Source: an uncultured Acidobacteriota bacterium
Lineage (GTDB): Bacteria; Acidobacteriota; Vicinamibacteria; Vicinamibacterales; 2-12-FULL-66-21
Length of the DNA stretch: 64,000 bases
Assembly (NCBI GenBank): GCA_963764925.1
Contig: CAVXUR010000015.1
Coordinates: 57,576-121,575 of the forward strand
Reading direction: 5' to 3'
Positions 8,011 through 16,984 of this stretch are shown piece after piece (position 1 is the first letter of the stretch; each line of letters opens with the position of its first letter). The notes under the pieces were generated by a model that saw only the letters and a program-made list of their open reading frames with translations, ran no database searches and was not told the DNA's origin. The position numbers and the translations under genes were made by a program.

Positions 8011-8706
8011 TTGATGCGCATCGCGATCCTGCAGTCCAGCTACATCCCGTGGAAGGGTTACTTCGATCTGATCAACTCCGTCGACGAGTTCGTCCTCTTC
8101 GACACGGTTCAGTTCACGCGGCGCGACTGGCGGAACCGCAATCGCATCAAGACAGCGGCCGGACCTGCGTGGCTGACGATTCCCGTCCACAGCAAGGGTC
8201 ACTATCTCGCGCCCATCAACGAGATCGAGGTCAGCGACGAATCATGGGCCGCCCGGCACTGGCGAACGCTCGCGCGCAGCTACGCGAGAGCGCCGTACTT
8301 CGGGACCTATGCCGACAGGTTCGAGCGGCTCTATGTCGAGTGCCGAGAGACGCGGCTGAGCGCGATCAACTTCGCGTGGATCACGGCCATCTGCGAGATC
8401 CTCGAGATCCGCACCAGGCTGACATGGTCGATGGATTACCAACTCGTCGAGGGCAAGACCGAGCGGCTGGCCGAGATCTGCCGGCAGGCGGGCGCGACGA
8501 CATACCTCTCCGGACCGGCGGCGAGAAACTACATCCAGCCCGAGATCTTTGAAGCGGCAGGCGTCGAGCTCCAGTATTTCAGCTACCAGGGTTACCGCGA
8601 ATACTCGCAGCTCTTCCCGCCGTTCGATCACTTCGTGTCGATCCTTGATCTGCTCTTCAACGAGGGGCCGAACGCGACCAGGTTCATGTTGAGTTTCAAC
8701 CCGTGA
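8011..8706 (+). CDS. WbqC-like family protein
   Basis: MRIAILQSSYIPWKGYFDLI...FDTVQFTRRDWRNRNRIK...YLSGPAARNYI is the WbqC-like family pattern seen in O-antigen/sugar clusters. The likely ATG is at 8014. Confidence 0.85.
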   Translation: MMRIAILQSSYIPWKGYFDLINSVDEFVLFDTVQFTRRDWRNRNRIKTAAGPAWLTIPVHSKGHYLAPINEIEVSDESWAARHWRTLARSYARAPYFGTYADRFERLYVECRETRLSAINFAWITAICEILEIRTRLTWSMDYQLVEGKTERLAEICRQAGATTYLSGPAARNYIQPEIFEAAGVELQYFSYQGYREYSQLFPPFDHFVSILDLLFNEGPNATRFMLSFNP

Positions 8707-9675
8707 CCCTCTCCATCGTCACGACGCTGTACTGCTCAGCGCCGCACCTCAAGGAGTTCTACCGGCGTGCCAGCGCCGCGGCGGAGACAATCGCCAGCGA
8801 CTACGAGATTGTCTTCGTCAACGACGGCTCGCCGGACGACTCGCTGTCGATTGCCCTCGAACTATTCGAGCGCGATCCGCGGGTCCGCGTGGTCGATCTC
8901 GCCAGGAACTTCGGCCATCACAAGGCGATGATGACAGGGCTGCGCCATGCCCGTGGCCAGCTCGTCTTCCTGGTCGACGCGGACCTCGAGGAGGATCCGG
9001 AGCTGCTGACGGCGTTTGCCGCCAAACTCGACGCTGCGGCGGCCGACGTCGTTTACGGTGTCCAGGCGGAGCGCCGCGGCGAATGGTTCGAGCGCTGGAG
9101 CGGCCGGATTTTCTTCAAGCTCTTCAACCTGATGTCGGACTACCCGATTCCAGAGAATCTCGTGACCGTGCGGCTGATGACCAGGCGCTACGTGTCGGCC
9201 CTGCTGTCACACGGCGAGCGGGAGATGGTGATTTCCGGTCTGTGGGTGCTGACCGGCTTCCGGCAAGTGCCGATCGCCGTCACCAAGCACTCGCGGTCGA
9301 AGACGACCTATAGCCTGTGGCGCCGGATTGCCGTGCTGGTGAATTCCGTGACGTCGTTCAGCAGCCGTCCATTGGTTTTCATCTTCTACCTGGGAGTGGC
9401 CATCGGCGCGCTGGCGGCGGCGGCGGCGTTGCTACCTGGTGATCCGTCGGGTCTTCTTCGGTATCCTCCTCCCTGGGTGGCCGTCGCTCATCGTGTCCAT
9501 CTGGCTTCTCGGCGGCATGATCCTGGCCTGCCTGGGCATCATCGGCATCTACCTCTCGAAAATCTTCATCGAGACCAAGCAGCGTCCCTATACCATTGTT
9601 CGCAGCGTCCATGAGCGAACCGCAGATCCGACTGAACCACAAAATCCTGGAGCCGGTCGACCGTTACTACTCTGA
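8703..9675 (+). CDS. family-2 glycosyltransferase, polyprenyl-phosphate sugar transferase type (ArnC/DPM1-like) with C-terminal TM helices; apparent +1 frameshift near 9433
   Basis: LSIVTTLYCSAPHLKEF...EIVFVNDGSPDDS...FLVDADLEEDP (DxD region). The C-terminal part WPSLIVSIWLLGGMILACLGIIGIYLSKIFIETKQRPYTIV lies in ORF 9439..9675. Confidence 0.85.
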
Positions 9676-10246
9676 GAAGCTCCGGCAATTCGGGCCGACG
9701 CACCGTGGCGTGGACTGGAGCACGGCCTCGTCGCAGGAGTTGCGGTTCAGCCGCCTTCTTCAGCTACTCAATGACGGCGAGGATGGGTCGATCATCGACT
9801 TTGGCTGCGGGTATGGCGCGCTGCTCGATTATGTCCGCGCCAGCGGACGGCGCGTCGCGTACTCGGGATTCGACATCAGCGAGACGATGATCCAGGCAGC
9901 ACTCGCCAGGCACGGCGCCGGGGGCTCCTTCACTGCGGACGTGTCACAACTCGCGCCGGCCGACTACGTCGTGGCGAGCGGCATCTTCAACGTCAAGCTC
10001 GGTCACGCGCCAGACGCCTGGTGGGACCACGTGCTTCAGACGCTGGCGCTGATGCGGTCCCTCTGCCGCCGCGGGTTTGCGTTCAACATGCTGACGAGTC
10101 ACTCCGATCTGGACAAGCGGCGGGAGGATCTCTTCTACGCCGATCCGGCACGGGTCTTCGACATCTGCCTGCAGCGTTTCTCGCCCCGCGTCGCGCTGCT
10201 GCACGACTATCCGCTCTATGAATTCACGATCATCGTGAGGGTGTGA
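9611..10246 (+). CDS. class I SAM-dependent methyltransferase
   Basis: SAM-binding motif IIDFGCGYGALLDYV. ATG at 9611 (the ORF-track start 9596 is upstream in the same frame). Overlaps the end of the GT2 gene. Confidence 0.8.
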   Translation: MSEPQIRLNHKILEPVDRYYSEKLRQFGPTHRGVDWSTASSQELRFSRLLQLLNDGEDGSIIDFGCGYGALLDYVRASGRRVAYSGFDISETMIQAALARHGAGGSFTADVSQLAPADYVVASGIFNVKLGHAPDAWWDHVLQTLALMRSLCRRGFAFNMLTSHSDLDKRREDLFYADPARVFDICLQRFSPRVALLHDYPLYEFTIIVRV

Positions 10247-15011: not shown

Positions 15012-16147
15012 GTCTGCCCGGCTGGATCTGCGTCGTCTGCGGCAACGGTCACTGGGTGGATTTACCGGAGATCGGTCCGCAGTCAATGGGCAGCGACTGG
15101 CGAGTCCTGCCGGTCCCACTGCAGAAGCGCGCCTGCGCCGGTTGCGGGTTGGTCTCGAGTGCGACGCCAGCGCGTGCCGGCTTCTTCGAACGCGGCTACT
15201 CACTCTACGCTCACGCGCCCTCTACCTCGCCGCGGGAGCACCAAAGGCAGCAGCTGTACGCTCGCTGGATCGCTCAGGCGTACCGTCGCACCGCAGATTT
15301 GCCGCAGCCACAATCCGTACTCGACGTGGGTTGCGGCAACGGATCGCTGCTTCTGGCGCTAGGCGACGAGTGGCCATCGGCAACACTCGCGGGATGCGAC
15401 CTTTCGGCCGAGGCCGTCGCACACGCCAACGCCGCGGGTTGCAGGGTCTGGCAAGGCACCCCGTCGACCCTGCCAACAGATCTCCGGGTCGATCTCGTCG
15501 TCAGCGTGAATGTCATCGAGCATGTAGACGACCCCTTGGCGTTTCTTCGCGATCTCGGCAGCCGGCTAAACCGTGACGGGCTGCTCGTCCTGATCTGCCC
15601 AGACGGCGCACGCCCGGGCCTCGAGCTGCTGATCGCCGATCACACCTACTCGTTCGCACCCAGCCATTTGGCAACGATCCTCGAGCGAGTGCAGCTCGTC
15701 CCGCGCCATCTCCAACCTGCTCCCACGGATCTCGGATCGTTTCAGATGGTCATCGCCGGCAACCGTTTGGGGTCTTCCACGCCGACAGTCACGGCTGCGA
15801 TCGACAGCAGTTGCCTGCGCGCGTACCTGCAGCGATGGTCGGCGCTCGACGGCCAATTGGTTTCACGGCTCGGCGACGGAGGTGTAAGCTGTTTTGGCGT
15901 TGGAGAAGCCGCGGGGCTGTTACGCGCCTACACTCCGCGAACCTGGCAGCGTGTCAGGTCGTGCACTGCCGACGAGATCACTGAATCGTCGCGATTCGGC
16001 CTGATCCCGGCCGTGCCGCTCGACCAACTTGCCGACGACGAGCCGGTCTTGCTGGGTGTGCGGCCGCAGGATCAGCCCGGACTGGTCGAGCGGTTGTCGT
16101 CACGGTTCGCCCACGTTATCAGCTGGCACGATCTCATCGAGGCATAG
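15008..16147 (+). CDS. SAM-dependent methyltransferase with N-terminal Cys4 zinc-ribbon (layout resembles NDP-hexose C-methyltransferases)
   Basis: CVVCGNGHW...CAGCG zinc-ribbon, SAM motif VLDVGCGNGSLLLAL, and a further C-terminal domain. GTG start overlaps the upstream stop (GTGA). Confidence 0.7.
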   Translation: MSLPGWICVVCGNGHWVDLPEIGPQSMGSDWRVLPVPLQKRACAGCGLVSSATPARAGFFERGYSLYAHAPSTSPREHQRQQLYARWIAQAYRRTADLPQPQSVLDVGCGNGSLLLALGDEWPSATLAGCDLSAEAVAHANAAGCRVWQGTPSTLPTDLRVDLVVSVNVIEHVDDPLAFLRDLGSRLNRDGLLVLICPDGARPGLELLIADHTYSFAPSHLATILERVQLVPRHLQPAPTDLGSFQMVIAGNRLGSSTPTVTAAIDSSCLRAYLQRWSALDGQLVSRLGDGGVSCFGVGEAAGLLRAYTPRTWQRVRSCTADEITESSRFGLIPAVPLDQLADDEPVLLGVRPQDQPGLVERLSSRFAHVISWHDLIEA

Positions 16148-16150
16148 CCC

Positions 16151-16984
16151 GTGCGGGACAAGTCATCGGCCGCGGCATACGGCATTCGCGAACGCGAGCA
16201 GGATGGCGATGCGCTCGCCTTTCACGTGGAGCGCATCCGCGCGATCGGTTACTCGGTGCTCGACAGCGGCATCAGCCGACAGGACATCGATCGTCTAAGC
16301 GTGTCCCTCGACGCGATCCTGGATCGCCAGGCCCAGGAGTTTGGCGGGATGGACCAGCTCGTCCGCATCGGTGACGCCTATACCGCCCGATGTCCGCTCG
16401 TGTATGACGATGGATTCGTCGAGCTGGTGAGACATCCACTGCTGCTGAGACTCTGCCGACGTCTACTTGGCGAGTATGTCCAGCTCATGCAACAGAACGG
16501 CGTCGTCAATCCGCCTGGTGAGAACCACCCGCAAGGCGTCTATCACCGCGACCTGCCGTATCAGCATTTCGTATCGAGCCGCCCTCTGGCGGTGAGCGCG
16601 CTTTTCTGCATCGATCCGTTTCGAGTCGAGACCGGCGCTACGACCGCGCTACCGGCGTCGCACTTGAACGAAACTTTCCCGTCAGACGAGGTGAGGGCCT
16701 CGATCGAGACGCCAATCGAGGCAGCGCCGGGGGCCTTTATTGTGTTCGACTCGATGTTGTTTCATCGCGCCGGTGCGAACCGCTCCGGACGGCCGCGGCG
16801 GGCCGTCAACCACGTCTTCACGGTTCCGATCATCGCGCAGCAGATTGCGTTGCCGGCGGCGCTGGGCGGACGGTTCGCCGACGATCCCGAGCTGGCGCGG
16901 CTTCTGGGCTATGAAGCGGCGCCAGCCGCTTCCGTAGCGGAATGGCGCAAGCGGAGGCTCGCGCGAACCACCTCACGGACTTGA
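16151..16984 (+). CDS. phytanoyl-CoA dioxygenase (PhyH) family Fe(II)/2-oxoglutarate oxygenase
   Basis: YHRDLPYQHF (HxD region) ... IVFDSMLFHRAGANRSGRPRRAVNHVF is typical of the PhyH family. Confidence 0.75.
   Translation: MRDKSSAAAYGIREREQDGDALAFHVERIRAIGYSVLDSGISRQDIDRLSVSLDAILDRQAQEFGGMDQLVRIGDAYTARCPLVYDDGFVELVRHPLLLRLCRRLLGEYVQLMQQNGVVNPPGENHPQGVYHRDLPYQHFVSSRPLAVSALFCIDPFRVETGATTALPASHLNETFPSDEVRASIETPIEAAPGAFIVFDSMLFHRAGANRSGRPRRAVNHVFTVPIIAQQIALPAALGGRFADDPELARLLGYEAAPAASVAEWRKRRLARTTSRT

Follow-up and report, generated by a model that had tools for sequence, protein, structure and literature searches.

A stretch of 64,000 nucleotides from an uncultured bacterium of the Acidobacteriota (Vicinamibacterales, 2-12-FULL-66-21; assembly GCA_963764925.1, contig CAVXUR010000015.1, positions 57,576 to 121,575), here called the window, carries a cluster of nine plus-strand genes at positions 8014 to 16984, which is probably a self-contained system for decorating glycans outside the cytoplasm by means of a polyprenyl-phosphate sugar and a GT-C glycosyltransferase. 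Neighbouring genes overlap by 4 nucleotides or are separated by gaps of at most 34 nucleotides, and the start of the first methyltransferase gene (MT1) overlaps the 3' end of the gene for the GT2 glycosyltransferase by 65 nucleotides. The cluster lies between a rhomboid gene and a DMFA2_C-like gene (Table 1). A preliminary description, made from the sequence alone, had already reported nine plus-strand genes with overlapping or near-touching ends, and this arrangement was borne out, though five of the genes are frameshifted in the window. Pfam and NCBIfam matches to the frame-corrected proteins confirmed the identities then given to the WbqC protein, the GT2, the S-adenosylmethionine (SAM) methyltransferase, the NeuD-like acetyltransferase, the WecE-like aminotransferase and the PhyH oxygenase. 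The membrane protein described as having about 680 residues has 683 and is polytopic, and the gene product read as a beta-propeller resembles the GH130/GH43/DUF377 group.

Table 1. The nine-gene cluster and other features of the window. Positions are those of the window; cluster genes are given as frame-corrected (six indels removed relative to the metagenomic contig L001).
Feature	Position	Strand	Length (residues)	Matches and remarks
Sole multi-transmembrane open reading frame of 80-220 residues (stop-to-stop scan of whole window)	2576-3127			Unlinked to cluster
Rhomboid gene	7223-7912	-		Flanks cluster
WbqC-family protein	8014-8706	+	230	PF08889
GtrB/ArnC-type GT2	8703-9675	+	323	PF00535; broken by frameshift at 9432
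MT1, small class-I SAM methyltransferase	9611-10246	+	211	Methyltransf_12/23/25
NeuD/PglB/VioB-family left-handed beta-helix (LbH) sugar N-acetyltransferase	10255-10915	+	219	TIGR03570; frameshift at 10470
Five-bladed beta-propeller, GH130/GH43/DUF377 superfamily	10920-11818	+	299	Frameshift at 11692
WecE/RffA-type aminotransferase	11815-12950	+	377	NF008687, TIGR02379; frameshifts at 11820 and 12429
Polytopic membrane protein with C-terminal soluble domain	12959-15011	+	683	Predicted GT-C; frameshift at 14152
MT2, class-I methyltransferase	15008-16147	+	379	Methyltransf_23; N-terminal four-Cys motif
PhyH-family Fe(II)/2-oxoglutarate dioxygenase	16151-16984	+	277	PF05721
DMFA2_C-like gene	16994-19406	-		Flanks cluster; split into two open reading frames
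Ser/Thr kinase fused to PD40/Tricorn-type beta-propeller	20168-22843	-
MacB/FtsX permease	23768-26490			Split
Pyrroloquinoline quinone (PQQ) dehydrogenase	26940-27971			C-terminal half only
Outer-membrane beta-barrel	32580-35993			Split

As assembled, five of the nine genes are interrupted by six single-base indels, which raises the question of whether the cluster is, in this genome, a decaying pseudogene array without function. A near-identical copy on the metagenomic contig L001 (97.9% identity over 12.8 kb) has all nine genes intact, and all nine are free of stops in the window once the six indels are removed. The ratio of non-synonymous to synonymous substitution rates (dN/dS) between the corrected window genes and those of L001 is 0-0.21 in each of the nine. 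The alignment of the two contigs has 12 gap openings, of which 11 are single-base and 10 are extra bases in the window, and such a pattern of surplus bases is typical of long-read consensus error. The indels other than these six lie in flanking genes and intergenic DNA (window positions 17931, 19728, 19801, 19991-19992 and 20013, at a rate of about 1 per kb); the DMFA2-like, MacB, PQQ dehydrogenase and outer-membrane barrel genes are broken as well, and a sister contig from a similar assembly type is split in like manner. Because the copy in L001 is intact, dN/dS is low and both flanking and distant genes are also broken, the six frameshifts are most likely consensus errors of long-read assembly rather than gene decay. 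The pseudogene reading was rejected as very improbable.

The GT2 matched PF00535 (E 8e-29) and, over its full length, the structure of Synechocystis GtrB (5EKP, E 6e-53, residues 2-301), and it matched three ArnC structures with E values from 1e-34 to 1e-28 (best, 9HWJ). After frame correction its C-terminus contains two hydrophobic transmembrane (TM) helices forming a hairpin, as in the GtrB/ArnC family; GtrB-type enzymes of three-component glycosylation systems have one or two such helices. The best NCBIfam match was PgfS, and the PgfS and ArnC models both aligned full length and scored under their cutoffs, the ArnC equivalog model NF007986 reaching 126 bits against a cutoff of 529 (aligned 3-303 of 316). 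Judged by these alignments, the enzyme shares the architecture and superfamily of ArnC yet is not an ArnC equivalog, and it is predicted to be a polyprenyl-phosphate glycosyltransferase.

The sugar that it would load can be narrowed down from two further genes. The aminotransferase exceeds the cutoff of the NCBIfam equivalog model for dTDP-4-amino-4,6-dideoxygalactose transaminase (dTDP, deoxythymidine diphosphate; NF008687, 572 bits against 375) and that of the WecE subfamily model TIGR02379 (562 against 435), and it scores well below the cutoff of the ArnB model NF008658 (200 bits against 631). Its best match in the PDB was E. coli WecE (4PIW, E 4e-130), with ArnB at E 1e-46, and the motif of the pyridoxal phosphate-binding lysine, SFHETK, is readable in the corrected protein. 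The WecE models leave the C4 stereochemistry of the product, galacto or gluco, undecided. The acetyltransferase scores above the TIGR03570 cutoff (172.2 against 160.8 bits, residues 3-205), has the N-terminal Rossmann-like domain and LbH of the NeuD/PglB/VioB family, and matched PglD, PerB (aligned over residues 4-204) and VioB in the PDB. Together the two enzymes would most likely produce a dTDP-4-acetamido-4,6-dideoxyhexose, as predicted from their family assignments.

The 683-residue membrane protein gave no match in Pfam, NCBIfam or the PDB sequences. Its N-terminal, core and C-terminal segments had no Pfam match even at E<=10, a 56-sequence profile of the family had none in the PDB, comparison by hhalign with a PMT_2 protein gave a probability of 1.6%, and tblastn against plasmids found no match. 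Its relationship to glycosyltransferases was seen at the level of fold. In an AlphaFold2 model of high quality (predicted local distance difference test score, pLDDT, 89; predicted template modelling score, pTM, 0.92), the protein has a polytopic TM core of the GT-C kind (7-13 helices or more), an extracytoplasmic domain and a likeness to solved GT-C structures. The top 22 Foldseek matches in the PDB were all GT-C enzymes, with E values down to 4e-6, and included STT3, AglB, DPY19, ALG12, AftA, ArnT and Pmt4. Ranks 1-21 had probabilities of 0.92-1.00 and rank 22 was Pmt4 (E 0.11), whereas transporters and oxidases were matched at probabilities of 0.08 or less. The best structural matches were STT3 and AglB, catalytic subunits of oligosaccharyltransferases, and the C-terminal domain alone matched the C-terminal globular domain of AglB (probability 0.94-0.98); ArnT (5EZM), to which the preliminary description had likened the protein, was matched at E 5.5e-3. 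On the strength of the model, the 683-residue protein is predicted to be a GT-C glycosyltransferase of a family unrelated by sequence to the known ones. In a library of 1.84 billion representatives, 861 clusters at 50% identity belong to this family.

Across 109 diverse representatives of the family (20-48% identity) only G53, G76, D163 and H196 are invariant, and D163, within a WSDY motif, is also invariant among 56 close relatives. The loop that holds D163 (147-213, 67 residues) is free of lysine and arginine, and the loop at 117-124, ahead of the TM helix that leads into the D163 loop, carries three arginines. By the positive-inside rule, these features place D163 on the periplasmic side, where it supplies the conserved acidic residue in an extracytoplasmic loop that is characteristic of GT-C enzymes. 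D163 is likely to be the catalytic base, as far as conservation and predicted topology indicate. No WWDYG-type motif is present in the protein, which has only a conserved PRFxWG after its last TM helix. Four extra N-terminal TM helices precede the putative catalytic loop; the possibility that this bundle is a fused EamA or GtrA flippase found no support, hhalign showing no similarity to the flippase candidates of relatives.

The genes recur together in other genomes. A one-genome-per-species scan with the membrane-protein profile returned 31 loci, in which the nine proteins were then sought by tblastn. The membrane protein is co-located with a GT2 in 22 of the 34 loci compared, and is nearly always found beside a GT2 and a WecE-type gene (about 60% identity across phyla). 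A seven-gene core, consisting of the membrane protein, aminotransferase, GT2, WbqC, MT1, acetyltransferase and propeller, occurs in varying orders and orientations in Acidobacteriota (Vicinamibacterales), a Thermodesulfobacteriota metagenome-assembled genome (MAG), Paraburkholderia sp. CNPSo 3272, Nitrospirillum iridis DSM 22198, Devosia and Azorhizobium. It thus spans Alpha- and Betaproteobacteria, cultured strains included. All nine genes are co-located in the Thermodesulfobacteriota MAG, and soil metagenome contigs have the gene order of the window. Conservation of the neighbourhood, which the preliminary description had proposed to examine, was therefore found across phyla, with the order shuffled.

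Without the membrane protein, six of these genes form what may be termed a donor module: the WecE-like aminotransferase, VioB-like acetyltransferase, MT1, WbqC, GH130-like propeller and GtrB-like GT2. This module recurs in cultured Azospirillum brasilense, Peteryoungia desertarenae and Neorhizobium galegae, on replicons where its partner is a different polytopic protein or none. The A. brasilense plasmid encodes an unrelated polytopic protein of 527 residues (locus L041, 11958-13541) with an HDDW motif right after its first TM helix, and the N. galegae plasmid pNgVX one of 619 residues (locus L039, 8139-9998). Neither has a Pfam domain, and hhalign comparison with the window's membrane protein gave probabilities below 2% for both; the two may belong to additional GT-C families not yet classified. 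The Neorhizobium module is linked to rfbA and rffA, and the linkage of rfbA supports a dTDP-sugar origin.

Small flippase candidates of several kinds adjoin the genes in relatives: EamA (ArnE/F-like) proteins at loci L033, L038 and L041 (in Azospirillum, Peteryoungia and Azorhizobium), GtrA-like proteins at L003, L020 and L028, and an LPG_synthase_TM (MprF-type) protein at L010. These bear on the view that the cluster is a conventional cytoplasmic nucleotide-sugar pathway for O-antigen or capsule, with the GT2 as a Leloir transferase and the membrane protein as a polymerase, ligase or transporter. WecE-, VioB- and WbqC-type genes are indeed common in ordinary O-antigen clusters, and by sequence the membrane protein cannot be tied to any known GT-C family. 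Such a pathway is nevertheless considered most improbable, since the GT2 is built like GtrB and ArnC, down to the C-terminal hairpin, the fold of the membrane protein matches GT-C enzymes of the STT3, ArnT and AftA type and not Wzy, WaaL or transporters, the flippases beside relatives are typical of lipid-phosphate-sugar systems, and the genes form an island from which an initiating transferase and an exporter are missing.

Some relatives depart from the common arrangement. In a Burkholderiales MAG (L010), sulfotransferase-like and LPG_synthase_TM genes (15159-17219) lie between the GT2 and the WecE-like gene, and the acetyltransferase, MT1 and propeller are missing; this gene content suggests a differently tailored, perhaps sulfated, sugar. 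Two paralogues of the membrane protein stand side by side in L003 (2022-11980) and L011 (10001-15837), each with its own GtrB-like GT2 and GtrA, and L003 also has a classical PMT_2 GT-C. Going by their gene content, these loci appear to be arrays of lipid-phosphate-sugar decoration systems.

The acceptor of the sugar is suggested by the genes around the module. At L035, L009, L019 and L041 it is adjoined by polysaccharide genes, namely Wzm/Wzt-like ABC transporters with giant WbsX/GT1/methyltransferase enzymes, or GDP-heptose (GDP, guanosine diphosphate) and GT4 genes. In the window and in N. iridis the cluster stands alone, surrounded by unrelated genes, which fits the earlier proposal that it is a decoration system rather than a full O-antigen locus. 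A surface polysaccharide such as O-polysaccharide is the most likely acceptor, because of the O-polysaccharide-type contexts in relatives. The same machinery could instead serve a protein acceptor, with the GT-C acting like PMT, PgfM, a streptococcal GtrB-dependent O-glycosyltransferase or an oligosaccharyltransferase. This alternative draws on the rank of STT3 and AglB among the structural matches, on the AglB-like C-terminal domain, on the origin of PgfS, the best NCBIfam match of the GT2, in a protein-glycosylation system, and on the lack of polysaccharide genes near the cluster in the window and in Nitrospirillum. It is judged rather unlikely, as the WWDYG-type motif is missing, the module sits inside Wzm/Wzt O-polysaccharide-type loci in several relatives, and Foldseek ranks among GT-C subfamilies (template modelling scores of 0.3-0.45) cannot tell acceptors apart.

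MT1, WbqC and the propeller match the aminotransferase and acetyltransferase in how tightly they are conserved. WbqC matched PF08889 (E 2e-78) and belongs to a family of more than 8000 homologues. Its AlphaFold2 model (pLDDT 91.6) had no credible relative in the PDB by Foldseek (best E 0.037), a sequence search of the PDB gave no match, and no functional study was found in the literature search. The gene is co-located with the donor module in at least 16 loci, where its usual neighbour is the GT2. On plasmid pBWB401 of Bacillus mycoides KBAB4 (L040, 3801-9374), a WbqC homologue of 36% identity has a FemA/FemB-family aminoacyl transferase on one side and a PIG-L deacetylase on the other, with a DegT aminotransferase and a sugar dehydrogenase upstream. 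This context hints that WbqC may act on the N-substituent of an aminosugar.

The propeller had no Pfam match above cutoff (PF04041, 19.2 bits against a gathering score of 26). Its family profile matched, over partial regions, a GH130 1,2-beta-oligomannan phosphorylase (E 4e-9) and a second GH130 structure (E 2e-8) in the PDB, as well as GH117 and GH32, so that by sequence comparison it is placed in GH130 at superfamily level only. The family has more than 7600 members, some of them labelled 'GH43/DUF377' by JGI, and the protein has many invariant acidic residues. The 211-residue long form of MT1 is kept in 11 loci.

The last two enzymes are accessory, and they tend to form an oxygenase-methyltransferase pair. 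MT2 was found among the compared loci only in L001, L005 and L012, and the PhyH oxygenase, usually paired with a methyltransferase, in L001, L005, L012, L019 and L033. MT2 matched Methyltransf_23 (E 2e-19) and has an uncharacterised C-terminal domain. The preliminary description had assigned it a zinc ribbon and the layout of nucleoside diphosphate (NDP)-hexose C-methyltransferases: the N-terminal CxxC...CxxC is present, whereas the layout found no support, PF08421 (Methyltransf_13 zinc) and PF08484 (Methyltransf_14 C-terminal) being unmatched even at E<=10. Its best PDB matches were StiD/StiE and BamL-type methyltransferases, no TcaB9-type chain being among the best 60 of 78 matches at E<=1, and by these matches it resembles polyketide and peptide O- and N-methyltransferases. 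The oxygenase matched PF05721 (E 3e-23, 83.8 bits against a cutoff of 22), its HxD...H iron triad is readable (HRD and a distal FHRAG), and its PDB matches were SptF, EasH, KanJ and EvdO2-type oxygenases.

The reading of the cluster as a glycan-decoration system is carried by the family identities, the fold, the invariant residues and the co-location across phyla, from which we infer the enzymatic steps, the order of tailoring, the stereochemistry and the acceptor. The dTDP-4-keto-6-deoxy-D-glucose made by RmlA and RmlB encoded elsewhere would be aminated at C4 by the WecE-type enzyme, and the amine would be N-acetylated by the NeuD/VioB-type enzyme to give dTDP-4-acetamido-4,6-dideoxyhexose. 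MT1, WbqC and the GH130-like propeller would tailor the sugar before or after its attachment to the lipid, joined in this lineage by MT2 and PhyH, plausibly through hydroxylation followed by O-methylation. [quoted passage not shown] Subsequent to flipping of the lipid-linked sugar, by a flippase perhaps encoded elsewhere, the 683-residue GT-C-fold protein would transfer it to an acceptor on the periplasmic side.

Several points, besides the frameshifts discussed above, weigh against this scheme. The membrane protein is unlinked by sequence to any known GT-C family, and its D163 loop comes after helix 5, not after helix 1 as in canonical GT-C enzymes. No flippase of the GtrA, SMR/EamA, MATE or MprF type was found at the locus: positions 1-26000 contain no open reading frame of 95-175 residues (ATG, GTG or TTG start) with three or more predicted TM segments, and the only small multi-TM frame of the whole window is the one listed in Table 1. 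RmlA and RmlB are missing from the approximately 30 largest other open reading frames of the window. In addition, the donor may be other than a simple monosaccharide, because the scheme gives WbqC and the propeller no definite role. A more specific version of the scheme can be put forward only tentatively. In it, the donor module would make either a polyprenyl-phosphate-linked methylated 4-acylamino-4,6-dideoxyhexose or a disaccharide that the propeller assembles in the manner of a phosphorylase, WbqC would catalyse a new step on that intermediate, one possibility being a functional counterpart of ArnD, and the 683-residue protein would found a GT-C family, its N-terminal four-helix bundle standing in, as it might, for the missing flippase.

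The rest of the window was surveyed by Pfam scans of the largest open reading frames, a GC3-based caller (guanine and cytosine at third codon positions) being too crude at 64% GC. As the preliminary description had stated, Wzx/Wzy, Wzm/Wzt and an initiating phosphoglycosyltransferase are absent, none occurring among the same 30 or so frames. A scan for promoters and terminators gave hits no more frequent than chance, and look-up of the split open reading frame P0021 gave no record. Large Ser/Thr kinases fused to PD40/Tricorn-type beta-propellers flank the region both in the window (Table 1) and in L001 (1046-3682 and 18406-20679), and the rest of the window encodes several MacB-type permeases and FG-GAP/TPR proteins. 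This kinase and permease content is typical of Acidobacteriota and is unrelated to the cluster. The segment upstream of the rhomboid gene has been replaced between the two contigs (window 5325-7223, L001 841-3738), with a trypsin-like peptidase in the window and an 878-residue Ser/Thr kinase-PD40/Tricorn protein in L001, and L001 has an IS21-family (IstB) insertion (16572-18478) that the window lacks. Within the cluster, the synonymous divergence (dS) between window and L001 varies: the genes for the acetyltransferase, propeller and aminotransferase (window 10255-12950, L001 6769-9462) have values of 0.13-0.27, the other six of 0.005-0.03; this unevenness suggests a recombination tract exchanging mid-operon between strains.

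The donor module is abundant in soil metagenomes and is present in cultured plant-associated bacteria, namely Azospirillum brasilense, Neorhizobium galegae, Paraburkholderia, Nitrospirillum and Azorhizobium. The module may explain variation of surface antigens relevant to root colonisation or to phage or immune recognition, and the existence of cultured carriers makes the system directly open to genetics. The cluster gives a testable functional context to three families: WbqC (PF08889), the GH130-like propeller and the GT-C-fold family of some 860 clusters. If the proposed pathway is correct, a polyprenyl-phosphate-linked 4-acylamino-4,6-dideoxyhexose would be a new class of donor, and the principle of Arn and of three-component systems, which covers pentoses and common hexoses, would take in dTDP-derived aminodeoxy sugars as well.

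Among known systems, the Arn pathway, which adds 4-amino-4-deoxy-L-arabinose (L-Ara4N) to lipid A, was the analogy drawn in the preliminary description. Both have a DegT-family 4-aminotransferase, in both the 4-amino group is, or here would be, N-acylated before the sugar is put on the lipid, in both a GT2 ending in a TM hairpin makes, or here would make, a polyprenyl-phosphate-linked 4-acylamino sugar, and both have a large GT-C-fold transferase as the last step. The logic of the mechanism is therefore supported. Arn, however, uses a pentose linked to uridine diphosphate (UDP), whereas a dTDP-6-deoxyhexose made by a WecE-type enzyme is predicted here; the ArnA formyltransferase/decarboxylase is replaced by an LbH acetyltransferase; there is no ArnD-type deacylase, and no ArnE/F, though EamA proteins stand beside relatives; the membrane protein lacks the PMT_2/GT83 sequence signature of ArnT; and the cluster adds WbqC, the propeller, two methyltransferases and a PhyH oxygenase. 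No formyltransferase/decarboxylase, deformylase or EamA/SMR protein was found in the nine genes or the flanking open reading frames, and ArnA, ArnD and ArnE/F are absent from the window. With none of the Arn-specific features (ArnB, an ArnC equivalog, ArnA/D/E/F or the ArnT sequence family), the cluster is not a member of Arn. It could still be a true functional analogue, adding its sugar to lipid A or the core of lipopolysaccharide (LPS) and altering surface charge or resistance to antimicrobial peptides. The gene logic of ArnB, ArnC and ArnT, the presence of ArnT among the fold matches, the full-length match of the GT2 to ArnC and the self-contained, portable nature of the cluster are compatible with this. 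It is nevertheless improbable: the aminotransferase is of the WecE and not the ArnB type, the contexts of relatives indicate O-polysaccharide loci, and neither an ArnD- nor a PIG-L-type deacylase is encoded in the cluster, so that the amine would remain acetylated and uncharged.

The closest general class is that of the three-component extracytoplasmic glycosylation systems, which include GtrA/GtrB/GtrC, CsbB/GtcA/YfhO, PgfS/PgfM, Klebsiella Gml and Citrobacter GT136 (Kelly et al. 2024, PMC11127046). Like these, the cluster pairs a GtrB-type polyprenyl-phosphate sugar synthase with a GT-C (here at fold level), would modify a glycan after polymerisation, has a GT-C partner that changes by lineage, as the Azospirillum and Neorhizobium proteins illustrate, and has relatives with flippases of several unrelated families. 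The three-component systems use ready-made UDP-hexoses or phosphoribosyl pyrophosphate (PRPP), whereas the cluster carries its own module for aminosugar synthesis and tailoring; it also differs in having no flippase in the window, a GT-C family without a Pfam or NCBIfam model and four extra N-terminal TM helices ahead of the putative catalytic loop. The cluster thus agrees with the class in its GT2 and, at the level of fold, in its GT-C, and not in a flippase encoded at the locus.

The predicted sugar has its counterparts in the pathways to dTDP-4-acetamido-4,6-dideoxygalactose (dTDP-Fuc4NAc) and dTDP-4-acetamido-4,6-dideoxyglucose (dTDP-Qui4NAc, viosamine), which proceed through RmlA, RmlB, WecE or VioA and WecD or VioB. 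Shared with these are the equivalog-level WecE enzyme and an N-acetyltransferase of the VioB/PglD/PerB family; the known pathways, however, feed the dTDP-sugar straight to cytoplasmic Leloir transferases such as WecF. To our knowledge, neither a polyprenyl-phosphate-linked Fuc4NAc or Qui4NAc (4-acylamino-4,6-dideoxyhexose) donor nor a GT-C using one has been described, and a limited literature search found no lipid-linked Fuc4NAc/Qui4NAc system. The preliminary description had likewise named no pathway that the cluster matches gene for gene, and none was found in the literature search.

Some other systems also carry an aminosugar on polyprenyl phosphate. In the mycobacterial PpgS/Rv3779 system, which places galactosamine (GalN) on arabinogalactan, and in the Francisella FlmF2/FlmK and Bordetella LgmA/B/C systems, a GT2 making a polyprenyl-phosphate-linked N-acetyl-aminosugar works with a GT-C that transfers to a wall or LPS acceptor. 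These systems use UDP-N-acetylgalactosamine (UDP-GalNAc) or UDP-N-acetylglucosamine (UDP-GlcNAc) as donors and include a deacetylase; as far as we know, a WecE-type step, WbqC, a propeller and methyltransferases are all missing from them. The general kind of system, decoration by a polyprenyl-phosphate sugar and a GT-C, is already known; the cluster described here would be a variant of it that has two conserved enzymes of unassigned role and a GT-C family unrelated by sequence to the known families.

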